Positions 43,930 through 57,730 of a stretch of 64,000 nt of DNA are shown here, one piece after another. Location of the stretch: positions 6,937-70,936 of IMG/VR virus record IMGVR_UViG_3300003320_000410, one strand, 5' to 3'. The DNA comes from a virus. Position 1 is the first letter of the stretch. Each line of letters starts with the position of its first letter. The translations under genes were made by a program, and so were the position numbers. The notes beneath the pieces were generated by a model. That model made no database searches. It was given only the letters and a program-made list of their open reading frames with translations, and was not told the DNA's origin.

Positions 43930-43952
43930 CAAAGATAGGTAAATTGCTTTAC
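43930..43952 (-). promoter_or_regulatory. Bacteroidota sigma-A -7 element (TATCTTTG) for the late block, with adjacent GTAAA-N4-TTTAC palindrome
   Basis: CAAAGATA at 43930-43937 matches TAnnTTTG on minus strand; palindrome at 43939-43952. Confidence 0.65.
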
Positions 43953-43965
43953 TTTTACTTACACA

Positions 43966-44169
43966 ATGGAGACAATGACAATTCGACCCGGCAAAAAATA
44001 TGCAGGGATTGTGAAGAAATTACAGAATGCTGCAAGTGATTCCGGAAGGTCATTGAATAATTTTGTTTTATTCTTACTTGACAATCATTTAAAAAATAGC
44101 ACGAATGAGCACCAAAATGCCGGACAAACTGCTGGGGGGACGCCTCCTAGTGAAAGTATTAAAGAGTGA
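43966..44169 (+). CDS. Ribbon-helix-helix (Arc-like) protein
   Basis: TMTIRP...KKLQNAASDSGRSLNNFVLFLL. Confidence 0.7.
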   Translation: METMTIRPGKKYAGIVKKLQNAASDSGRSLNNFVLFLLDNHLKNSTNEHQNAGQTAGGTPPSESIKE

Positions 44170-45087: not shown

Positions 45088-45680
45088 TCCCATTACTAAC
45101 TATAATGATCCCAACCACCGTAGACAGGCAAGACCTTTTCAGGCCCTTGATTTCGGAATTATGGCGTCAAATATATGAAAGTGCGTGGCTCCCGGCTGTT
45201 GATATAATTTCTATGGAGGACGACAAACGAATTTCTGTAGGCTATAAACGCCAGCTTTTATTAGAAAGGGCCACAGGATTATTTGTAGTGGGGTTTGATT
45301 CCGACGACTGGCCAGCCGAAGATTATATTTCTTCCATAATGGGGGCCATTTCTAACCATCCAAATACTGATCATGTTGGATTTTTAGAGCACTGTACGAT
45401 AGATGGCAAAGAAAGCATATCCTGTTTTTCATCTAGTCATTTGAAATGGGAAGAGAATGCTCACGGGTTTGACCATATTCGTTGCGCTAACCCAAAATCG
45501 GTCATCCGCCGTTCGATTGCTTTAAAGGTAGGGTTTCAGGATTTGAGATACGGAGAGGATAGAATATTTTCAGAAGCAGTTACGCCATTAATCAAATCAG
45601 AAGTTTTTTTGAATAAGGTTTTATATTATTATCGCCACACTTCAAATATGACTCATGAAAAAAGATACGGCATTATTTGA
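45084..45680 (+). CDS. Glycosyltransferase family 2-like
   Basis: LTIMIPT, FDSDD, GED, LYYY motifs. Confidence 0.8.
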   Translation: MIPLLTIMIPTTVDRQDLFRPLISELWRQIYESAWLPAVDIISMEDDKRISVGYKRQLLLERATGLFVVGFDSDDWPAEDYISSIMGAISNHPNTDHVGFLEHCTIDGKESISCFSSSHLKWEENAHGFDHIRCANPKSVIRRSIALKVGFQDLRYGEDRIFSEAVTPLIKSEVFLNKVLYYYRHTSNMTHEKRYGII

Positions 45681-46389
45681 GATTGTTTGTAGAGTTTGTC
45701 AAACTGTTAAGGGTGTTGAATCGTTTATTGGTAAAACTAAAAAAAATGGTCGTTTTTACTATGATAAAATATGCAAAGAATGCCTGAATAAAAGGCTTAG
45801 GTCAAAAAGGGTTATAAAAAGACAAAACATCCCAGAAATTCCAGGAGAGATTTGGGTGCACCTTCCTGAATTTGAAGGTCACTATCAAATTAGCAATTTA
45901 GCCAGAGTAAAGTCTATTGATAGGGTTGTGATGAGATCGGATGGATTTGCAGTTAGAAAACCATCTCAAATCAGAAAGGTTAGAATTAATCAAGATGGAT
46001 ATTTGCAACTAGTTTTAATTAAGGATGGTAATTTTTATAATACCTCTCTCCATATACAGATGGCAAAGGCTTTTGTTCCGAACCCAAATAATCTGCCTGA
46101 AGTTAACCACATAGATGGCAATAAACAAAATTGCTTACCCACTAATCTCGAATGGAACACCCACCTATGCAATATGCAGCATGCTGTTAAAAACGGCCTT
46201 AGAAAATACGCAAAAGGAGGCCCCTCAATCAGATACAAAATACCATTAAATGACGTTCTTTATATTTACAGAAGTGATGAAAAAACTGGTGTATTAGCCA
46301 AAAAGTACAATGTAACTAAGTCCGCCATTCAAAGGATTAAAAATGGACAAACATATTCAAAAGTAACTAATCATGGAGCTAAAGAATAA
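45655..46389 (+). CDS. NUMOD4-HNH homing endonuclease
   Basis: EIWVHLPEFEGHYQISNLARVKS; VNHIDGNKQNC...NLEW. Confidence 0.9.
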   Translation: MKKDTALFEIVCRVCQTVKGVESFIGKTKKNGRFYYDKICKECLNKRLRSKRVIKRQNIPEIPGEIWVHLPEFEGHYQISNLARVKSIDRVVMRSDGFAVRKPSQIRKVRINQDGYLQLVLIKDGNFYNTSLHIQMAKAFVPNPNNLPEVNHIDGNKQNCLPTNLEWNTHLCNMQHAVKNGLRKYAKGGPSIRYKIPLNDVLYIYRSDEKTGVLAKKYNVTKSAIQRIKNGQTYSKVTNHGAKE

Positions 46390-47092: not shown

Positions 47093-47923
47093 ATGGCTAT
47101 ATTTCAAGTAGACACAATGAAAGCGATAATATCGAGCACGGAAGATGATAAGTATTTATTCTTTATCCCAATAGTGGCTTGGTGCTGGAAGAAACTCGAT
47201 GTTCAGACTATTTGTTTTATCCCATCGGGGCGCATTTCGGCATTGAAGATAGATTTGATATTTGAAGTGTTGCAAAAGGTAGATACCCCTGTAGAATTTC
47301 ATGTTTTTGATTGCGCTGAAGGCAAGGAGGCCACTTACGCCCAATGTTCAAGACTATATGCGGGGGCCTTGGATTTATTAGATGATGAAATACTTGTAAC
47401 TTCCGATGCAGACATGGCGCTTTTCAAGTTACCTATTCCAGAACTTATTGATTCCTCTGTACAATTTAATGTATTTGGATCAGACTTAGTTCCTCCAAAG
47501 CAAATTCCAATGTGCTACGTTTCCGCAAAGGCTTCAGATTGGAAATTAGCCTTTTCAAAAGGACGCTCACTTCAACAGTGTTTGGACGAATTATTAAAAA
47601 ATATAGAATCTGCCACAATGAAATCAGACTATTGGGGCAAAGATCAAGAAGAGATGTTTAATAGCCTTTATCTGCATCCAATAGTAATTCAAGACAATCC
47701 AAGGGCTAGGCCCGGCACACAATTCGCTTCAAACCGGTGCGACAGAGACGACATAAATTGGCGTTCATATTTAGGGGGGTATTTAGTCGATGCCCATCTA
47801 TGGAGGCCGGGGTACACAGACGAAAACTTTGCTAATATCCTTGAATTACTACAGACGCAATATCCGAATGACCATTTTGATTGGTTAATAAAATATAGAA
47901 ATGATTATGTCAGTCTTTTATAA
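47093..47923 (+). CDS. Glycosyltransferase-like protein
   Basis: QCSRL, ILVTSDADM (DxD), WGKDQ motifs. Confidence 0.55.
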   Translation: MAIFQVDTMKAIISSTEDDKYLFFIPIVAWCWKKLDVQTICFIPSGRISALKIDLIFEVLQKVDTPVEFHVFDCAEGKEATYAQCSRLYAGALDLLDDEILVTSDADMALFKLPIPELIDSSVQFNVFGSDLVPPKQIPMCYVSAKASDWKLAFSKGRSLQQCLDELLKNIESATMKSDYWGKDQEEMFNSLYLHPIVIQDNPRARPGTQFASNRCDRDDINWRSYLGGYLVDAHLWRPGYTDENFANILELLQTQYPNDHFDWLIKYRNDYVSLL

Positions 47924-48473
47924 TTCTCCACGTTTTTATGAAATAAAACCTCTGCAAAAAGAGAAGTGGTTACCTTTGGGTGATTTTGAAAATAACATCT
48001 GGGTAAGCAACATGGGGAGAATAAAGGCCATTGCTTGTCAAAATAGGAATAATCGAAAAAGGGGAGAAGAGTACATAATACCACAATTTATCTGCGGTAG
48101 AGGATATTTGACTATAGGATTTTGTTATAATGGCAAAAACTATATGAAATCTGTTCATAGGCTAGTTGCATTGCTTTTCATTCCGAATCCTTTAAATAAA
48201 AAGACGGTAAATCATAAAAAGGGAATAAAAATCGATAACAGGGCCACTGAACTTGAATGGGCCACTTATTCAGAACAAGAAATACATTCATTAAAATTGG
48301 GTCTTAGAAAAACAGGGTCAGCCCATTTTGCTACAAAATTAACAGATGAAGATGTTTTATTTATTAAAACATCAAATATGAAACAAAATGAATTAGCTAA
48401 AAAATTCGGTATTTCAACAGCTCATATTAATAATATAATAAAAGGTAAAAGAAGAAAGAATGAATATTCCTGA
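47901..48473 (+). CDS. NUMOD4-HNH homing endonuclease
   Basis: WVSNMGRIK; VHRLVA..F, VNHKKG.K.DNR..ELEW. Confidence 0.9.
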   Translation: MIMSVFYNSPRFYEIKPLQKEKWLPLGDFENNIWVSNMGRIKAIACQNRNNRKRGEEYIIPQFICGRGYLTIGFCYNGKNYMKSVHRLVALLFIPNPLNKKTVNHKKGIKIDNRATELEWATYSEQEIHSLKLGLRKTGSAHFATKLTDEDVLFIKTSNMKQNELAKKFGISTAHINNIIKGKRRKNEYS

Positions 48474-49589: not shown

Positions 49590-49900
49590 GCCCCTATATT
49601 ACGTACAAAGACACGAATAAAAACGGGGATTTATGCCTGTACATCCTTCAGCGAGAATTTCCCCATTACCAAGGTGTCATTTGCTACCTTCCTATCCATG
49701 ATTCTATTTGCTGTATCCCGATAGCCGGGCATAATCTTTATTTGGCTTTTGCAGGTACGATCCGGGGGAATTACATCATGTCAAATCCAGAATATGAAAA
49801 ACAAGTAGGTCTTATCTTTGAATCTATGGCGGCGTGGTTTTATGAAAACAGGATACGGACTGACCCTAAGCGTTACAAGAAATGGGCTATTCATCCTTAA
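49586..49900 (+). CDS. Hypothetical protein ending the GT operon
   Basis: ATGA coupled; tail-to-tail overlap with next ORF. Confidence 0.65.
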   Translation: MSPYITYKDTNKNGDLCLYILQREFPHYQGVICYLPIHDSICCIPIAGHNLYLAFAGTIRGNYIMSNPEYEKQVGLIFESMAAWFYENRIRTDPKRYKKWAIHP

Positions 49901-50369
49901 AGAGGTCTCTTTCTATTCTGTGTTCCCAGATTTTTTCAACTACCGCGTTGAGGCCGTGGCGCGTATCCCTATCAAATAGAGTTTGCAATCCTCTCTCTTC
50001 TTTCCAGCAGTAGTCATAAAGTTTTTTGGCTTTCTTGTACTGACTTTCCGGCTGCCCTTCGAATTGTTTAAGACGTTCCCGTAGTTTATTACACCAAAGC
50101 TGACAAATGCGCCAATGTACGTTTTCATGGGAAAGTGTTCTCTCATCATTGGTTGTAGTCCAGCATTTTTCTGGGACAAGCTGGCAAGATACATCAAAGT
50201 GCATCTTGCCTTTTTCATCCGTCTCTACTTCCATATTCCATTCGTATCCAGTGTTAGCTGAATATCCTCGGGCTATTTGGGCGGAATCCGGGACACCCTT
50301 ATAGAAATCCCATGTTAGTTGTTTAGGCCCTGTGTAAAGAGCCAATACAAGGTATAGTAGAGTGTTCAT
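49887..50369 (-). CDS. DUF922-like Zn metalloprotease candidate
   Basis: LTW..YKG.P start, HENVH (HExxH), N-terminal hydrophobic segment. Confidence 0.65.
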   Translation of the reverse strand: MNTLLYLVLALYTGPKQLTWDFYKGVPDSAQIARGYSANTGYEWNMEVETDEKGKMHFDVSCQLVPEKCWTTTNDERTLSHENVHWRICQLWCNKLRERLKQFEGQPESQYKKAKKLYDYCWKEERGLQTLFDRDTRHGLNAVVEKIWEHRIERDLFKDE

Positions 50370-51109
50370 GGTTGTGGTTTTGGTGATGATCTTTCACAAT
50401 GTTGATGCCATATTTTTGTTCCGTCCCAATCGCCAATAGCGGATGATTTAAAACCCCTCTTGCCGCATATGCAGCATTTATCCCAATATCTTCTTTTAAG
50501 TCTTTGAATTGGGTGAAATTGAATTTTCCAATGATGTATGTGCCAGCGGGGGTGATTATACCATTTTGTCGTAGACCTCAGAATCCATCCATAAATAATT
50601 TGTGCGTAATGATCTAAAGCCTCTTCTCTATTCCAATTTTCTCCTGTACCCTTTCGAAACATCCCGGTAATTTCAGAATATAAAGAATCTGTTGGGTTTT
50701 CTGCAAAATGCAAAATATCAAACAGGTTTTTATTCATCCATCTTCTGTGTTTCTTCCTGTTGTATTTAAAATATTCCCACGCAGATTTACTGAACATACA
50801 AAGAGCAATTCCATGAACCGACATAACAGGCACGCCGGTAATAGGGGTAAAATAGCCAGTCAAATACATAGTACCATTTGATTCCGAAATATAAGTCCTA
50901 TCAAAGTCAAATTCAATGGAGGATTTGATCTTTTTAAGTATTTCCTTATCACCATGTCTGGCTCTCTTAAACCACCCGCATGAATCATCTGTACCATCTT
51001 TTTCGGGGTCAACATGCCAAATGGTTATTAACGGCGTACGATATGACCCGTTTTTTCTTTTCTTGGCTCCCAAATAAATCTCATGGGCAACCGTCATTGG
51101 ATCATGCAT
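50366..51109 (-). CDS. Hypothetical phage protein with C-terminal CxxC..H motif
   Basis: ORF track; coupled stop/start. Confidence 0.7.
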   Translation of the reverse strand: MHDPMTVAHEIYLGAKKRKNGSYRTPLITIWHVDPEKDGTDDSCGWFKRARHGDKEILKKIKSSIEFDFDRTYISESNGTMYLTGYFTPITGVPVMSVHGIALCMFSKSAWEYFKYNRKKHRRWMNKNLFDILHFAENPTDSLYSEITGMFRKGTGENWNREEALDHYAQIIYGWILRSTTKWYNHPRWHIHHWKIQFHPIQRLKRRYWDKCCICGKRGFKSSAIGDWDGTKIWHQHCERSSPKPQP

Positions 51110-51112
51110 AGT

Positions 51113-51346
51113 TTAATCTTTAGGTTCACGTTCTTTGAATGAAAATGCTATGTAAGAGGATTTAAGACCTTCGGTTTCCACGTTTATTACCTCTCTTACT
51201 AGTTCTTCATTGGGGTATGTTTCACACTGAAAGATTAGCGTGTCTTTTGGCATAATGGTGCGAGATGTTTTCTCTACGAGCATATTTCTTCCGGTCTTAC
51301 TTATGGAGCCGTATAGGCTACTATCCAACTGAAATACATGAGTCAT
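51113..51346 (-). CDS. Small ASCH/PUA-like protein
   Basis: DTLIF...REVINVETEGLKSSYIAFSF resembles DUF3850-type pattern. Confidence 0.45.
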   Translation of the reverse strand: MTHVFQLDSSLYGSISKTGRNMLVEKTSRTIMPKDTLIFQCETYPNEELVREVINVETEGLKSSYIAFSFKEREPKD

Positions 51347-51406
51347 ATGACAACAATTTGAATTTTGACGGTTTTATTTTCTTGATCTGTTAGCTTATAC
51401 CAGTAG

Positions 51407-51679
51407 TTACGGATTGGTTTTTTTTGTTGAATCTACTTTCATTTGCTTTTGCACCTGAGCAATAAGCTCCTGTTGGAATACTGTAATAGAGTCTTTCCAC
51501 TGAGACACGACGTTGGCGGGCAATGTGGACTTGTCCATAATGGCTTTTGCGTTATCCAACATTTGTAAATGAGATTGCCATTGTTCCGCCGTGAAAGTTA
51601 CATGATACGTTTTACTTTCAATGAACGTAAAAGAAAAAATACTAAAGGCCAATGCTAAGAATAGAACTGTTTGTTTCAT
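51407..51679 (-). CDS. Secreted small protein
   Basis: Signal-peptide-like N-terminus; DSI and DST sequons. Confidence 0.65.
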   Translation of the reverse strand: MKQTVLFLALAFSIFSFTFIESKTYHVTFTAEQWQSHLQMLDNAKAIMDKSTLPANVVSQWKDSITVFQQELIAQVQKQMKVDSTKKTNP

Positions 51680-51692
51680 GTTTTATTTTATT

Positions 51693-52055
51693 TTAGTGTT
51701 TAATTGCTTTTTGTTTGTTTAAAGTCTGCCAGTCTTTTTGTGATAAGTACCCTATTATTGGGCTATCTATAGTAAACACAAGTGGAATACCAGAACCTTT
51801 TATTACTCGATTTGGATAGCTTTTAAAATTCACATCGCTATTGTAGATATTTGAGATATTTTGTTTTATTGATACAACAGAATCATACTGCCTTTTCGCC
51901 ATCCGCAAGGAATCCCTATATAAAATCTTCATCTTGGCATTATATTGCAAAGCCTCTCTGTATTCAGATATTTCTTTTTCCTCATGCCATATGGCACCAC
52001 AATAAAGACTAAGTAGAATAACGTATGCTGCAATTGCCCACAATTCTTTTTTCAT
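51693..52055 (-). CDS. Membrane-anchored protein
   Basis: N-terminal TM helix; DSL and DSV sequons. Confidence 0.65.
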   Translation of the reverse strand: MKKELWAIAAYVILLSLYCGAIWHEEKEISEYREALQYNAKMKILYRDSLRMAKRQYDSVVSIKQNISNIYNSDVNFKSYPNRVIKGSGIPLVFTIDSPIIGYLSQKDWQTLNKQKAIKH

Positions 52056-52068
52056 ATAATGAAGTCTT

Positions 52069-52374
52069 TTAAGCAGTTTTTAATTTAAGTCTCTCCATTC
52101 TCATTTGCTTGATGATCTTTCTTGTCCAATCCGGGGTTAGCTTAAACTCTTTTGCTATTTCTTTAAGTTCTACTCCATCCTCATGCAGTTTATACATCTC
52201 TCTCATATCTAGTAATGTTAGTTTTTGATTTCCTCCACCACCCTGTATAGAAGGAGTAATATGCTTATAAATCTCCCAATAACAATTCGTATTGCTCGCT
52301 ATCCTTCTTAGTTCCTTTTCTGATGAACTTTCTATCACCTGACCATCAAAGCACAAAGAATAGGTAACTTTCAT
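52069..52374 (-). CDS. HTH DNA-binding protein
   Basis: C-terminal GVELKEIAKEFKLTPDWTRKII. Confidence 0.7.
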   Translation of the reverse strand: MKVTYSLCFDGQVIESSSEKELRRIASNTNCYWEIYKHITPSIQGGGGNQKLTLLDMREMYKLHEDGVELKEIAKEFKLTPDWTRKIIKQMRMERLKLKTA

Positions 52375-52377
52375 AAA

Positions 52378-52575
52378 TCAGAAAAACATTTCCTTGAATA
52401 ATTTACGATCCTCCTTTCTCTCATTTGCATAGGCATTAGCTATGTCACGTCTACAAGGAATACAATACCCTTCTCTTCCATCTACGGTATCGTGTCTTTT
52501 TGCAAATTCTTCAATATCCTTTATACCTTTACATTTGGGACACTTCTTTTTTCCGGGAGGTAAATCTGTTCTCAT
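52378..52575 (-). CDS. Zn-finger protein
   Basis: CPKC...CIPC; ATG 52575 coupled to upstream stop. Confidence 0.65.
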   Translation of the reverse strand: MRTDLPPGKKKCPKCKGIKDIEEFAKRHDTVDGREGYCIPCRRDIANAYANERKEDRKLFKEMFF

Positions 52576-52856
52576 TGTAAGTAATATTCTAAAGTGATTA
52601 AACATTTCGCAATCCGATGCCGGATCATTTCGTCAGTTTGCCCGTTTGAAAATTCATCTACAGATTTCCAAAGGTTTACCTGATCCTCAATTTCATAGAC
52701 AGGTTTAATCTTTCCAGAGCGCAACAATTTACCATATCCCATCCCCATAATTTCCTGTATGGCCCAGGAACTTGCCATAGCACTCATCCAAGCAACGTTA
52801 TTATTTTGGAATAGGTCAACTTGCTTTTTTACTAAATCAGCAAAATAGCCAATCAT
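52572..52856 (-). CDS. Hypothetical protein
   Basis: ORF track; coupled. Confidence 0.65.
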   Translation of the reverse strand: MIGYFADLVKKQVDLFQNNNVAWMSAMASSWAIQEIMGMGYGKLLRSGKIKPVYEIEDQVNLWKSVDEFSNGQTDEMIRHRIAKCLITLEYYLQ

Positions 52857-53476
52857 TCGTCGCCGGTATAAGTGTTAAATAAATCCAATAAAGTAGCTGA
52901 ATCATCCCCTCTTTTCATATCACAGTGCTTTACCGTTGATCTGGCACTATGCCCCATTCCTTTTAAGGTAAGGTGTTGCTCATATCTGATTGCTTCCAAT
53001 GTCCTATATCGTTTATCCCGGTATTTTTCAAAATAATCAAAAAACATGGGCATATCCAATTTTTCTGATATTTTACCAAACTTTCCGGTTAAAAGGTCTT
53101 TCAGGAACAATAGAACATCTTCAATGGATAGTTGATCCTCATGGGCGCTATCTATGATACCATCCGCCAAATCCAATATCTGATCTGCTGACATCCTAGC
53201 CTTTTCTATATTATTAAAAGCGGAAAGTATTGAGGCAGATAGCGCAGCCTGTACCCTTTTCCGCCCTTCTGGTTGCTTTATAAGTTCCGGTATGCGTTGC
53301 TCAAAAGGGATTGCCAGGGTTTTTTCATATTTCACCATTCCTTGCTCTCTATAGACCGCCAAGACTTCGTTTATTTTAGCCGGACTACCCTTCTGTTCCA
53401 TTACGCTTAATATAGGCTGCGTATAGGTCGTCGGAAGTTGGTTTTTCTGTTGATTTTGTTGTGGTAGATTTTCCAT
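52853..53476 (-). CDS. Putative replication accessory (helicase-loader position) protein
   Basis: Follows replisome-organiser-like ORF; FLKDLLTGKFG pattern; start could be 53401. Confidence 0.45.
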   Translation of the reverse strand: MENLPQQNQQKNQLPTTYTQPILSVMEQKGSPAKINEVLAVYREQGMVKYEKTLAIPFEQRIPELIKQPEGRKRVQAALSASILSAFNNIEKARMSADQILDLADGIIDSAHEDQLSIEDVLLFLKDLLTGKFGKISEKLDMPMFFDYFEKYRDKRYRTLEAIRYEQHLTLKGMGHSARSTVKHCDMKRGDDSATLLDLFNTYTGDE

Positions 53477-53738
53477 TTTGATCTTTTTTAGGATTATGCA
53501 CCTTATAAAAGCCCTTCCAATTTCGGGAAATACTTCGGTTTACGATCCTCTTTGCATGTTCCTCATCTCCCTCCGAAAGGTCTACCAGTTCATTTAAGGC
53601 CGCCTGTTCGCTTATCTCGTTCTTATAGGCAAAGTGGTGCGTTTCCCACCTAAAACGTTTCCACATTATCCAAATTGGTTCAAACCCTTCCGAAAATGGA
53701 CTTTGTAATCCTTTCGTGAAAACATGCTCTTTATTCAT
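53385..53738 (-). CDS. Replisome-organiser C-terminal-like protein
   Basis: W..FR......Y....EQAALNEL..LS....A..I...SI...WKGFY pattern. Confidence 0.55.
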   Translation of the reverse strand: MNKEHVFTKGLQSPFSEGFEPIWIMWKRFRWETHHFAYKNEISEQAALNELVDLSEGDEEHAKRIVNRSISRNWKGFYKVHNPKKDQNGKSTTTKSTEKPTSDDLYAAYIKRNGTEG

Positions 53739-53746
53739 GGCTTTGT

Positions 53747-54643
53747 TTAATTTTTAATAATAACTTCTGCCCTCCCATATCTCAACTCCATTCTCTTTTG
53801 TACTACGATGTAGCCGTCTTGAATGAAAGCATACATTGGCATCAACCCCTGTATTTTCATTGCCTTTAAAAGGCCGTCCGCAGGACCCCCCCCGGAGGGG
53901 CCGCCGGAGGCTATCAATCTACAGAATCGCCGCTGTGAAGTAAGCAACCCAATGTTAATAAGTTTTGCCCTTATAGCAGCCCCCTGAGCCTGGGAGAGCT
54001 TTAATAATCTGCCAAACCCATTTGCAGACAGGCCAACATAACAACTGTTTATCCTTTCAGAGAAGTTATTGGGAACTTGGTTCCTTGGGCAGTTTTGTAC
54101 TCCGGACTTTCTGATGTTATATTCCTGTTGCTGTAGGTTAAAACGTATTATTTGCGCTCTTAATAAATTTAACTGATTTTTGTGGTCAACTGGCACACCT
54201 ATATTCTTGCTACCCCAAATCTGGCCTATTTTTCTTAGCCCCTTAAAGGTCAAATTCCCTGAATGATCTACGACCAATCCACTATTTCTCAATACCTTTA
54301 AATGAAAGGCGAGGCAGGCCGGAGAGCATTTAAGTATTTGAGATAGCCCCCGAAGATTGAAACGGTAATGTGTATTATTTACATATAAAGACTTCATTCG
54401 GACAAAATATCCCAATGACCGTAACCAGCCATATTCGTTGGCGTCCTTAATTAGTCTTACAGGTAAGAATACAGTGTCGCGCAATTCCTTGGATTTTAGC
54501 AATAAAAAAAGCCCCGTACGTATGTACGCGGCCCTGATTGCTAAATCTTTATTCCATTTATGAGAAAATGTCCGAAGTCGGACAGAGATGGACAAAAATA
54601 AGTTTTTTTGCTCATAAAATTGAATAAAAGATTTTAGCGGCAT
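53747..54643 (-). CDS. Winged-HTH protein, possible replication initiator
   Basis: Two wHTH-like segments (LSQILKCSPACLAFHLKVL; FGRLLKLSQAQGAAIRAKL). Confidence 0.5.
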   Translation of the reverse strand: MPLKSFIQFYEQKNLFLSISVRLRTFSHKWNKDLAIRAAYIRTGLFLLLKSKELRDTVFLPVRLIKDANEYGWLRSLGYFVRMKSLYVNNTHYRFNLRGLSQILKCSPACLAFHLKVLRNSGLVVDHSGNLTFKGLRKIGQIWGSKNIGVPVDHKNQLNLLRAQIIRFNLQQQEYNIRKSGVQNCPRNQVPNNFSERINSCYVGLSANGFGRLLKLSQAQGAAIRAKLINIGLLTSQRRFCRLIASGGPSGGGPADGLLKAMKIQGLMPMYAFIQDGYIVVQKRMELRYGRAEVIIKN

Positions 54644-54675
54644 AAAAATGAGAATTATTTAATACTCGACCAAAT

Positions 54676-55083
54676 TTATTTTTCCAACCCTCTCCACCAT
54701 AAAGGAGTAGAAGGACGTTTTTCGGAGTTTAGGGCCTTATTAAGCTCTGTTTTCTTCAGGTATAGATTGTCTAGATAGGGTGCTATGGCAATAATCAGTT
54801 TCCGGGTATTTTCCAACATAACTGAATATAATCCTTTTTGCCTCTTCCCAATCGTGCTGTCTATTTTACGATCTAGCCATTTTGCAAATTCATCTGGCGT
54901 TAAGTTGGATTTAGCTCCATTACACATATGACAGCAATACAAAATGTTGGTTTTACCTGAATGTCCTCCTTTACTACGTGGGATAATATGATCCTTTGTT
55001 CTGAGCAAAACTTTGCCCCCAACGGAAGCAGCTCCCATTGGCCTTTCACAATAAAAACATGTCTTTGCTTTATAGGTGTTCAT
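54676..55083 (-). CDS. HNH endonuclease
   Basis: CFYC, TKDHIIPRSKGG, CHMCNGAK. Confidence 0.85.
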   Translation of the reverse strand: MNTYKAKTCFYCERPMGAASVGGKVLLRTKDHIIPRSKGGHSGKTNILYCCHMCNGAKSNLTPDEFAKWLDRKIDSTIGKRQKGLYSVMLENTRKLIIAIAPYLDNLYLKKTELNKALNSEKRPSTPLWWRGLEK

Positions 55084-55120
55084 ATTTTTTACTGAACCGG
55101 GTCTGATACTTTATTAAAGC

Positions 55121-55462
55121 CTAAAATAGTTCTATTTGTTCAAGTAGTTTTTGTTCTTTTGCTTCTTTTTCGGTTCGCGGAGGCTTTTGGCTAATTTGCT
55201 GCTGCACATACTCTTCAATTAATTTAATACCAGGAAGATTATACTCGGTTCTGTTAAGTTTATATTCTGTCCAGGTACAAGGAACTTTATATCTACTTAA
55301 TCCTTCTTTTCTAGTTCTTGAAACAATAACACCAAACGGCTTTTCAATGCATCTACTTACTTCCCGGGGAACGTTGGTAATACCCAAGTTTTTGAAGCCA
55401 GTCATTATAGTAATAACTTCTCCTCTTAATAGGGCCATAGCCAGAGCTGCTTTAGCATTCAT
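55121..55462 (-). CDS. Putative HTH/wHTH protein
   Basis: LLRGEVIT...NVPREVSR pattern. Confidence 0.5.
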   Translation of the reverse strand: MNAKAALAMALLRGEVITIMTGFKNLGITNVPREVSRCIEKPFGVIVSRTRKEGLSRYKVPCTWTEYKLNRTEYNLPGIKLIEEYVQQQISQKPPRTEKEAKEQKLLEQIELF

Positions 55463-55842
55463 ATATCGAATAAGTTTTGAAGTCCTTTTTTCTTGTTTCT
55501 GGTGATCCTTGAATTCTCTTTATGTTGCTTAGAGTCTAACCGTAAATGATGTAGTTGACAAAGGGCTGCTAAATTTTCGTCAGAATTATTTGTTACATCA
55601 TGGTCCAAATGGGCTACGGTAAGAACTATCTTAATGATTTTCCAGCCTACCGATTTAGCCCATTCCGCATCGGCATCGCCTTGGTGTGAGCATTCAATCG
55701 GATGCCAACCACCAAGATCATCCCTATAACCGATATCGTAGTTTTTTACTCCGCATTCTTTGCAACAGTTATTTTCTCTTTGGAGGATTCTTTCCCGGAT
55801 TTGTTTCCAGTCTTTAGGATATCTGGAATAGTCACAAGGCAT
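55459..55842 (-). CDS. HNH-like protein
   Basis: CKECG, LTVAHLDH, NLAALCQLHH. Confidence 0.75.
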   Translation of the reverse strand: MPCDYSRYPKDWKQIRERILQRENNCCKECGVKNYDIGYRDDLGGWHPIECSHQGDADAEWAKSVGWKIIKIVLTVAHLDHDVTNNSDENLAALCQLHHLRLDSKQHKENSRITRNKKKGLQNLFDI

Positions 55843-55845
55843 ATA

Positions 55846-56148
55846 TTAATCTTTAAATAGTACTACCTTTACATTGCCATGACGGAAGTTCGAACTAATA
55901 ATTACGCCTGAAAGCCTTTCTTTATCTTCCTTTGTTAAGTTGTGCCATTTTGCAGCCGGTATATTATGCTGCTCGAAATTCCAAAAACCGATTGGATTAG
56001 GATGATCCATTCTTCCAACGACAAAGAATCTTTCTTTTAACCAATCTTCCGCTTCATATAATGCGCCCCAATCTACCTTACCCCCATTAGTGAAGATGCG
56101 TTCTTCCTGCACTTTATGTCCGTATATTCTTTTAGATACTGTTTGCAT
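55846..56148 (-). CDS. Hypothetical phage protein
   Basis: ORF track. Confidence 0.65.
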   Translation of the reverse strand: MQTVSKRIYGHKVQEERIFTNGGKVDWGALYEAEDWLKERFFVVGRMDHPNPIGFWNFEQHNIPAAKWHNLTKEDKERLSGVIISSNFRHGNVKVVLFKD

Positions 56149-56380
56149 GTTGTAAGTTTTTAAGGTAATCGAGAGCCATTTTTCTTGCGGTTAAGAGTAA
56201 AAACGCTCTTGTATTATGATCCCCGTCTAAGTCTTTGGAGATTTTTCTATATAGGATCATAAACGTCTCCGCTACTATTTCCTGAGTTTTTTCTCTTTCA
56301 TTTATTAACGAATATACAAGCTCATAGGTTTCTTGCCAGTATTTATCATAGTATTCCTTCAACACTGTTCTACGCTCCAT
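56132..56380 (-). CDS. ECF sigma-70 region-2-only protein (82 aa)
   Basis: YDKYWQETY..V...I...EKTQEIVAETFMILY...RAFLLLTARKMALDYLK; no region 4; ATG at 56380. Confidence 0.65.
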   Translation of the reverse strand: MERRTVLKEYYDKYWQETYELVYSLINEREKTQEIVAETFMILYRKISKDLDGDHNTRAFLLLTARKMALDYLKNLQHANSI

Positions 56381-56437
56381 AATCAAAGGCTTTTAAAAGG
56401 TGTGATGTAAAGCAACGAAATATATTTTGAATTTCCA

Positions 56438-56453
56438 AGTAAATTATTTTACT
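56438..56453. promoter_or_regulatory. Palindromic operator in divergent control region
   Basis: AGTAAA-TTAT-TTTACT; same GTAAA-N4-TTTAC core as at 43939. Confidence 0.6.
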
Positions 56454-56472
56454 TTACATAAAATTAGTTCAA

Positions 56473-56649
56473 ATGGCAGAGACAAAACAGATAAGCGCGA
56501 CTATTAATACGGATGTAGCAAACGATGTTACGCAACTGGCGAAAGATGACAAAAGAAGTTTTAGCCAAATGGTGGAAATGCTTTTGATGGAGGCGCTTGT
56601 GGCTAGGAGTAATTCAAAGATCAGGCAGAATAAAGAAAAAATAAGATAA
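56473..56649 (+). CDS. Ribbon-helix-helix protein (58 aa), not in track
   Basis: KQISATINTDVANDVTQLAKDDKRSFSQMVEMLLMEAL; TAATG overlap with next gene. Confidence 0.75.
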   Translation: MAETKQISATINTDVANDVTQLAKDDKRSFSQMVEMLLMEALVARSNSKIRQNKEKIR

Positions 56650-57161
56650 TGGGTTTGGAAGAAATTAGGCGGTTGAAGGATGCTTCAACTGAGCCGAAAC
56701 AAAAAAAAATATATCAAATCCCTAAAGTGTCTAAAAAGAAGGCAGAGAGAGCCGCCAAAGACAAGGAATTGATAGAGTCTGGAAAGGCTATTGTTTCCGG
56801 AGGCAGTGCTGATTTAAAGCGGTGGTTTGAAGAAAGGCGCAAGGAAATGACTGGTCGCTGCCTGCATTGCCAGGGTAAATCGTGCAAAGACTCTGATGAA
56901 TATTTTAAATTCAGCATCGCTCATATACTCCCCAAAAGGTTGTTTAAATCCGTAGCTACGCATCACCTTAACTGGATAGAGCTTTGTTTTTGGGGAAATT
57001 CTTGTCACACAAACCTAGACAATAACGCACTTGATTTGACAGACTTAAACTGCTTCGACACCGTAATTCAACGATTTGTAGCAATGTACCCTTCGATAGA
57101 CAAATCTGAAAGAAAATATATTCCTGATGCTCTTTTACAATATGTGGAGGTAGAAAAATGA
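56649..57161 (+). CDS. His-Me finger nuclease-like protein (NinG/Rap-like position)
   Basis: CLHC, AHILPK, NWIELC, CH motifs. Confidence 0.55.
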   Translation: MGLEEIRRLKDASTEPKQKKIYQIPKVSKKKAERAAKDKELIESGKAIVSGGSADLKRWFEERRKEMTGRCLHCQGKSCKDSDEYFKFSIAHILPKRLFKSVATHHLNWIELCFWGNSCHTNLDNNALDLTDLNCFDTVIQRFVAMYPSIDKSERKYIPDALLQYVEVEK

Positions 57162-57730
57162 ATAAAACGCATGGTCTTTCTAAGAGCCGTTTGTATAGGA
57201 TTTGGAATGGCATGATGATGAGATGCTATAACCCTAGACGAGAATGCTATCCGCGCTATGGCGGGAGGGGCATAAAAGTATGTATCAGGTGGCATAAGTT
57301 TGATAATTTTCTTTTAGATATGGGACCTACGTACATGGATGGCCTTACTTTAGAAAGAAATAAAGTAAACAAGGGGTATTGTAAGTCAAATTGTAAATGG
57401 ATACCGTTTTTGGATCAATCAAAAAACAGATCAAATACAATAAAATTATCGGTTAACGGCAGAAAATTGTCAATCCCGGAGTGGAGCACTATTAGCGGCG
57501 AGAGTGTTAAATTAATTTATCAGAGGATTAAAAATGGGTGGTCGGCAAGAGATTGTATATACGGGCGCGGGAATAGAAGGAAATTATCTTCCGAGCAAAC
57601 TGATATGGTGTTTTTTGAATATAAAAAGGGCACTAGCAAAAGAGCTATAGGTAGACTTGTCGGCGTAAGTCACAGTAGAGTTACATCCATCTTACAATCC
57701 AAACTTCTTAGTGCACGAAAAACCAAATAA
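57158..57730 (+). CDS. HNH-family homing endonuclease with C-terminal HTH
   Basis: THGLS.SRLY.IW..M..RC, YGGRGI, TLER, NC.W. Confidence 0.8.
   Translation: MNKTHGLSKSRLYRIWNGMMMRCYNPRRECYPRYGGRGIKVCIRWHKFDNFLLDMGPTYMDGLTLERNKVNKGYCKSNCKWIPFLDQSKNRSNTIKLSVNGRKLSIPEWSTISGESVKLIYQRIKNGWSARDCIYGRGNRRKLSSEQTDMVFFEYKKGTSKRAIGRLVGVSHSRVTSILQSKLLSARKTK

Follow-up and report, generated by a model that had tools for sequence, protein, structure and literature searches.

A stand-alone ECF-type sigma region-2 protein at the head of an early operon in an uncultured phage of soil Bacteroidota

Every sigma-2 domain of the sigma-70 family docks on the clamp helices of the beta-prime subunit of RNA polymerase (RNAP), and sigma factors that are split or truncated are few and were mostly found by chance, i.e. 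RsoA, Sig8, gp55 and MtvS1. SigO-RsoA and Sig7-Sig8 of Tn916 are group-4-like sigmas, the Tn916 pair being located on a mobile element (PMC8103513; bioRxiv 10.64898/2026.10.01.756105). In both of them, a sigma-2-type polypeptide is separate from the part that reads the -35 element, and a sigma-4-bearing partner is required; the SigO and RsoA genes lie in one operon, yvrI-yvrHa (PMC8103513), and RsoA is listed at 9.0 kDa (PMC10141391). T4 gp55 (with gp33 and the sliding clamp gp45) and SPO1 gp33/gp34 represent phage factors that supply only the sigma-2 function, and in gp55-type systems recognition of the -35 element is dispensed with or passed to a co-activator that is not sigma-like (PMC12867686; PMC13627669). 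All natural stand-alone sigma-2-like proteins to which a role has been assigned, namely RsoA, Sig8, gp55 and, as a proposal, MtvS1, are positive initiation subunits that work with a second protein (bioRxiv 10.64898/2026.10.01.756105; PMC8103513; PMC13627669; PMC12867686). A sigma-derived domain with a role other than that of an ordinary sigma is found in PhyR (PMC8103513). The authors of the ECF reclassification named the search for split ECFs as a task still to be done (PMC7826278), and our searches of the full-text literature returned split sigmas and no description of ECF-derived phage proteins consisting of sigma-2 only.

Here we analyse a gene for such a protein in an uncultured phage of soil Bacteroidota with a genome of about 72 kb. 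Compared by description with SigO-RsoA and Sig7-Sig8, this phage also has a small separate polypeptide that consists of sigma-2 only (82 aa), but we could detect no sigma-4-bearing partner, and the gene next to it is unrelated; the protein itself is plainly recognisable as an ECF sigma-2 of the Bacteroidota expansion family. Supplying only the sigma-2 function, as we propose for it, would be the feature shared with gp55 and with SPO1 gp33/gp34. However, gp55 is larger, highly diverged and essential and serves a repeated late-promoter motif, whereas the 82-aa protein is early, accessory and of ECF descent, no repeated motif was found in 33 upstream regions of the genome, and its late block has a host-type promoter. 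The best family match is to the full-length ECFs of Bacteroidota (TIGR02985), from which the protein differs in having neither linker nor sigma-4 and in belonging to a separate group of short proteins. PhyR has a sigma-4-like part in addition to the sigma-2-like one, the surfaces with which it would contact core and promoter are degenerate, and it is fused to a receiver domain; none of this applies to the 82-aa protein.

The source record comprises 72,437 bp and is 95% complete according to CheckV; the window, that is, the whole stretch of 64,000 bp analysed here, corresponds to its bases 6937-70936. The features discussed below are the following:

56132..56380, minus strand: stand-alone ECF-type sigma region-2 gene, 82 aa (Pfam, PHROG, NCBIfam, PDB match, AlphaFold/Foldseek)
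55846..56148, minus strand: 100-aa gene overlapping the end of the sigma-2 gene (ORF; not sigma-4-like)
52069..52374, minus strand: 101-aa protein, the candidate 'region 4' of the original prediction (generic HTH)
49887..56380, minus strand: leftward early unit, 16 tightly packed genes with the sigma-2 gene as the first (tiny or negative gaps)
56381..56472, no strand: divergent control region of 92 bp between the sigma-2 gene and the RHH gene (sequence inspection)
56473..56649, plus strand: RHH (CopG/Arc-like) regulator gene (Pfam RHH_5, E 4e-6; Arc-like repressor PHROG)

The sigma-2 ORF starts with ATG at 56380 and stops with TAA at 56132-56134, giving 82 aa; an alternative upstream TTG start at 56386 would give 84 aa. 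A prediction made earlier from the letters of this DNA (the original prediction) had described the gene as the first of a leftward early unit and as overlapping with the gene that follows. Indeed, it heads 16 minus-strand genes that extend from 56380 to 49887, and the ATG of the downstream gene (56148) is located inside the sigma-2 ORF, with an overlap of 17 nt that reads ATGCAAACAGTATCTAA. Among the other genes of the unit are two for HNH endonucleases and some for initiator-like proteins and for HTH proteins, in addition to small ORFs. The RHH gene and the sigma-2 gene are transcribed divergently from one control region, in which we found an imperfect 27-nt palindrome at 56405-56459 (outer arms ATGTAAAG/CTTTACAT), the element AAGTAAA-N4-TTTACTT at 56437-56454 and, on the minus strand, a near-match to the host -7 box, TATATTTC. 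The palindromes are probable operators, and the RHH protein is likely the repressor of this early divergent switch. The gene that follows on the plus strand (56649-57161) encodes a 170-aa Cys/His-rich protein that is present in four of the five relatives fetched, always at the early switch; its only Pfam match is a weak one to terminase-RNaseH, and the homologue in the relative G205 has an equally weak match to HNH_2. Stand-alone genes for HNH/NUMOD4-type endonucleases are abundant in the window (45655-46389, 47901-48473, 54676-55083, 55459-55842 and 57158-57730), and several of these proteins have a C-terminal HTH, which is the source of the only weak 'region 4-like' matches of the genome.

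The 82-aa protein matched Pfam Sigma70_r2 with an E-value of 1.9e-5 and 24.8 bits (cut-off 24) over profile positions 3-69 of 71, PHROG 1740 ('RNA polymerase sigma factor'), and NCBIfam TIGR02985 (Sig70_bacteroi1) with an E-value of 8e-9 over positions 4-73 of 162, i.e. the N-terminal half only. Its sequence match in the PDB was the ECF sigma BldN (6dxo, E 5e-4), and an HMM that we made from its nearest full-length ECF sigmas gave a score of 88 bits, in the sigma-2 part only. The AlphaFold2 model, based on an alignment of 17 sequences, had a pLDDT of 91 and consisted of three helices, and its best Foldseek matches in the PDB were sigma-2 domains of ECF sigmas with TM-scores of 0.67-0.81 by query: SigL, SigH and SigE of M. 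tuberculosis, region 2 of E. coli sigmaE, the N-terminal fragment of SigR and the dCas12f-associated sigmaE of a flavobacterium. Helices are predicted at residues 2-26, 29-46 and 54-79. The second of them corresponds to the core-binding region 2.1/2.2 and the third to region 2.3/2.4, and loop L3 comprises residues of about 47-59. The protein stops 8 residues past region 2.4, and the linker and the sigma-4 domain are absent. Searches with Pfam r4 and r4_2 across the whole 72,437-bp record gave nothing significant, the sole r4-type score, 11 bits, being due to an HNH/NUMOD4 endonuclease and its HTH. We also considered whether a sigma-4 lies downstream of the gene in a frameshifted or decayed form and rejected this, as no ORF of at least 40 aa in any frame there matched the sigma-4 HMM. 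Pfam, NCBIfam, the AlphaFold model and Foldseek thus agree with the earlier assignment of the 82 aa to an ECF sigma-70 region 2 with a clean end, and the predicted lack of region 4 held for the ORF as well as for the 72-kb record. We are highly confident that the gene encodes a stand-alone sigma-2 domain from the Bacteroidota ECF expansion family, which is kept at about 80 residues and is transcribed first from an RHH-controlled early switch.

The original prediction had pointed to the protein encoded at 52069-52374, the HTH of which could resemble region 4 but might be generic. With our own sigma-4 HMM this ORF was the best sigma-4-like ORF of the window, at only 9 bits (E 0.019 for about 600 ORFs). 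Pfam preferred the HTH of Mor and of resolvase, both below the cut-off, NCBIfam gave no match, and the neighbours in the ESM Atlas were generic HTH proteins. A single-sequence model (pLDDT 68) showed a small N-terminal beta/alpha domain, a Gly-rich linker and a C-terminal three-helix HTH, and no sigma-4 was among its matches in the PDB. The pairing with the sigma-2 protein is therefore unsupported but conceivable, and a partner with no likeness to a sigma may also exist.

For the 100-aa gene adjacent to the sigma-2 gene, one homologue is 84% identical and belongs to a cluster represented on JGI contigs of 28 kb and 54 kb, and homologues of 32-33% identity are present in two unrelated high-GC IMG/VR phages; no sigma-2 was found within the approximately 10 kb fetched on each side of the latter two. 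Since the family occurs in other phages without a nearby sigma-2, the 100-aa protein, which is not sigma-4-like, is probably no dedicated partner. The homologues in the two high-GC phages (L102:9926-10249 and L103:9959-10225) share conserved motifs including KWHNLT, and the genes around them resemble recombination genes by appearance. No anti-sigma-like gene was found near the sigma-2 gene, and no sliding-clamp gene was among the Pfam and PHROG matches in the regions examined.

To find homologues of the 82-aa protein, we used an exhaustive HMMER pass over 1.84 billion representatives, which yielded 60 matches at E ≤1e-3. The nine best matches were 77-87 aa long at 34-49% identity (a 978-aa repeat protein was left out), full-length ECF sigmas of about 190 aa appeared only from an E-value of 5e-7 on, and the 16 nearest relatives were all 66-92 aa. 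The short proteins align end to end, and all of them stop 3-13 residues past a conserved YLK motif. In a sigma-2 tree, 17 short proteins including the 82-aa protein formed a short-only group apart from the full-length ECF sigmas (SH-aLRT 97), in which the terminal branches measure 0.3-1.0 changes per site; this tree is unrooted and based on 75 columns, and a single origin of the short group is compatible with it, not proven. Four further short matches that are scattered among full-length sigmas in the tree are probably fragments. Members of the short group are found on contigs of 60,291 (P0015), 61,425 (P0190), 67,974 (P0038) and 78,315 bp (P0050), showing that the short ORFs are not gene calls cut off by contig ends; 60-78 kb is also the genome size of the phage group defined by the large terminase (TerL). 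Another member, P0062, is recorded on a contig of 26,103 bp. The GC content of the sigma-2 gene is 34.5%, compared with a mean of 39.4 ± 4.1% for the genes of this phage, and is thus within 1.2 SD of it, so the gene is not a fresh capture. One check attached to the original prediction was whether the homologues are full-length; the nearest relatives are consistently 66-92 aa long and form a group of their own, which favours a real short form. As its group is small and consists of proteins that are all similarly short, we regard the 82-aa protein, on sequence comparison, as a maintained mini-sigma and not as a decayed copy of a sigma gene.

Other collections gave no further members: neither IMG/VR scans with the family alignment, P0008 and P0038 nor the GenBank phages contained a short-group protein, the scan of GTDB genomes returned only full-length ECFs, 401 Chitinophagales genomes had no close match to P0038, and in 201 genomes of the family of G001 the best matches were full-length frames only. 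In a Niastella genome, 52 full-length ECFs matched the profile of the short family, the best of them with 73 bits. One short-group protein (P0036, 76 aa) and one TerL homologue (P0072, 69% identical) are each recorded on a contig of 15,250 bp; if this is one and the same contig, a mini-sigma may lie near the terminase in a relative.

A scan of JGI metagenomes returned a second family of stand-alone sigma-2 proteins, which is chromosomal and about 114 aa long (sigma-2 and a tail of about 35 aa, without sigma-4). It is found on large bacterial contigs from soil and rhizosphere metagenomes (L003-L013, e.g. L012:9974-10318 (+)) and is always preceded by a conserved 126-aa ORF (L012: 9573-9953). 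A LuxR-type response regulator is encoded nearby, in L004 also a hybrid histidine kinase, and some of the loci have a full ECF/anti-sigma pair about 1 kb downstream. This family forms its own group in the sigma-2 tree.

In structures of ECF holoenzymes, the region 2.2 helix binds the beta-prime coiled-coil, and the contact residues are conserved across sigmas (PMC6411747). This helix reads EIVAETF in the 82-aa protein and DIVAETF in P0011 and P0016, the full-length ECFs nearest to it. The 82-aa protein and the Sig70_bacteroi1 ECFs also have the motif N-[IV]-[KR]-A-F-L..TAR in common. In the HMMER alignment to SigL of M. tuberculosis, the invariant F60 corresponds to W68, the residue that stacks on the flipped '-11' base in SigL (PMC6372665), and residues of about 48-59 correspond to the specificity loop L3. 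Mapped by helix spacing, F60, T64, K67, L70 and D71 would be equivalent to W81, I85, N88, I91 and N92 of SigH, where N88 and N92 contact bases (PMC6411747). The most conserved positions of the short group are G53, N56, F60, L61, T64, R66, L70 and K74, with G53, N56, R66 and K74 being (near-)invariant. Position 67 is N in most full-length relatives (28 sequences), whereas in the short group it is N in six, D in four, E in three and K in two proteins, i.e. acidic in 7 of 17; position 71 is D in most full-length relatives (26 sequences), and D (five), N (four), R (two) or another residue in the short group. The pocket scaffold thus appears to be kept while the putative base readers 67 and 71 vary, a pattern that fits either a diversified -10 specificity or a partial loss of DNA reading. 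In ECF sigmas, the linker that joins sigma-2 to sigma-4 enters the cleft of the active site (PMC6372665).

Hundreds of homologues of TerL with 60-71% identity are known, and many of these are located on contigs of about 60-77 kb. The relatives were found with a TerL alignment, whereas single-protein scans with TerL or with a 298-aa early protein gave none. Two TerL homologues of about 1095 aa (P0127 and P0186) contain the homing-endonuclease/Hint domains PF05203 and PF05204, and P0127 only also contains PF01079; the large terminase of some relatives therefore carries an intein. The 41 loci of a PAPS-reductase-like neighbour were rejected as phage relatives, having no synteny with this phage. 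We searched the whole records of 12 TerL-relatives from IMG/VR, and the sigma-2 gene was absent from all 12. The only complete genome among them (G205; 71.6 kb, with inverted terminal repeats) encodes a full-length 210-aa ECF-type sigma with r2 and r4_2 (L078:1486-2118 (+), equal to G205:C1:58847-59479). Its gene is located directly downstream of the G205 homologue of the window gene 56649-57161 and thus at the same early locus. Of the genes in the early region near the sigma-2 gene, only four are shared with two or more of the five relatives fetched. The G205 sigma is not close to the 82-aa protein and groups with host-type full-length ECFs in the tree. As these two proteins at the same locus are unrelated, ECF modules appear to have been acquired independently, more than once, at one early locus.

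The original prediction had further proposed, besides an RNAP-core hijacker and an anti-sigma decoy, half of a split sigma that drives phage transcription, in line with the lack of a phage RNAP. The latter point was borne out: we detected neither a Pfam match to a T7-type or multisubunit RNAP nor a DxDGD motif in the giant proteins. Boxes of the Bacteroidota -7 type were found for the late block at 43930-43937 (TATCTTTG) and for the GroES operon at 44058-44065 (TAATTTTG), and both are of the host type TAnnTTTG. No repeated non-host promoter motif was found across 33 upstream regions, and generic scans for sigma-70 promoters and terminators gave matches no more numerous than in shuffled sequence. 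Host-type boxes in a phage with no detectable RNAP of its own mean that the phage depends on host RNAP, largely via the host primary sigma. These boxes, the absence of the gene from the 12 TerL-relatives and the unrelated full-length ECF that the complete relative has instead all weaken the proposal that phage transcription is driven by the 82-aa protein. We conclude that the mini-sigma is an accessory early function and not the core of the transcription programme of this phage group.

Our preferred explanation, to which we give a rough probability of 0.45, is that the 82-aa protein is a mini-sigma that binds the RNAP core and provides the sigma-2 subunit for an initiation factor that is either two-part or -35-less. 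Its region 2.1/2.2 helix would dock on the beta-prime clamp helices of the host RNAP core, and the retained loop L3 and the aromatic pocket would hold the melted non-template strand of the -10 element. The protein would then act like RsoA, Sig8 of Tn916 or T4 gp55, and part of the host polymerase would be diverted to a few phage or host promoters early in infection. We favour this explanation because of the base rate among known stand-alone sigma-2 proteins and because of the kept pocket scaffold. The identity of the domain and its fold, the maintained short form, the kept core-binding helix and the lack of a phage RNAP count in its favour as well, as does the full-length ECF of G205 at the same early locus, from which it follows that sigma-based redirection occurs in this phage group. 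Counting against it are the lack of a sigma-4 or a credible partner in the genome, the adjacent gene that is not linked to sigma-2 elsewhere, the lack of a linker, the variable residues 67 and 71, the lack of a repeated motif, the host-type -7 boxes and the absence from the 12 TerL-relatives. Since no partner, linker or repeated motif was found and the base readers are relaxed, other explanations have to be weighed.

The protein could instead occupy the beta-prime clamp helices without forming a productive holoenzyme and in this way leave less polymerase to those host sigmas that bind weakly, in particular the numerous ECF stress sigmas of Bacteroidota; stress or defence responses would then be blunted early, while the primary sigma, which binds more tightly, would still serve the phage promoters. 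We consider this rather unlikely. In its favour, the gene is small and the first of an early operon, a competitor needs no partner, and no sigma-4, linker or partner was found. The core-binding helix is conserved, the base-contacting residues 67 and 71 are relaxed in comparison with full-length ECFs and often acidic, the phage operons have host-type promoters, and about 50 ECF sigmas of this family are encoded by likely hosts. The scattered occurrence of this accessory gene in related phages is likewise typical of genes for host takeover. However, the scaffold of the flipped-base pocket (F60, T64, G53, N56, R66 and K74) is strictly kept, although a pure blocker would not need it, and a lone sigma-2, with fewer core contacts than a full ECF, would probably compete poorly unless it were very abundant. 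The literature searched contains no natural precedent, and to our knowledge no natural competitor consisting of sigma-2 only has been described.

A free sigma-2 might also serve as a PhyR-like decoy that binds a host anti-sigma, releases the cognate ECF sigma and switches on a regulon that helps the phage. This is very unlikely in our view: as a rule, an anti-sigma domain grips sigma-2 along with sigma-4, so that a sigma-2 on its own should be bound only weakly, the core-binding and pocket residues are not degenerate, unlike those of PhyR, and no anti-sigma-like gene was found nearby. What speaks for a decoy is the descent from a family of host ECFs that are normally under the control of FecR-type anti-sigmas, the sigma mimicry established for PhyR-NepR (PMC8103513) and the presence of PhyR sigma-like domains among the weaker fold matches in Foldseek. 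Finally, the ORF could be mis-called or the remnant of a captured host ECF sigma, a fragment that is not under selection; its absence from 12 of 12 reachable relatives, the lack of a homologue above about 50% identity and the Pfam score barely over the cut-off would agree with this. Nevertheless, we regard a remnant as improbable in view of the supported group of 17 clusters of 66-92 aa, which have diverged to 30-49% identity with their ends and functional motifs conserved, the predicted fold of high confidence, the clean start and tight overlap with the next gene, and a GC content in line with that of the phage.

To summarize, the proteins of about 80 residues form a small, undescribed group, and an ECF-derived family consisting of sigma-2 only is probably carried by phages of Bacteroidota. 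Tentatively, and with more doubt than confidence, we suggest that they represent a new class of RNAP hijackers, an ECF mini-sigma of sigma-2 only without any sigma-4, which would form either a minimal -10-only holoenzyme or the first natural sigma mimic that blocks the clamp helices. In the case of a minimal holoenzyme, the variable base-contacting residues would set a phage-specific promoter code, and a protein working alone would provide a very small orthogonal transcription part. If the protein is a blocker, the docking site on the clamp helices would be closed to the ECF stress sigmas of the host, and such a competitor would be a new kind of anti-host factor. With proteins this small and tractable, it can be asked how much of a sigma is needed to bind the core and to read a promoter, and how phages that lack a polymerase steer or silence the unusually large ECF repertoire of Bacteroidota.
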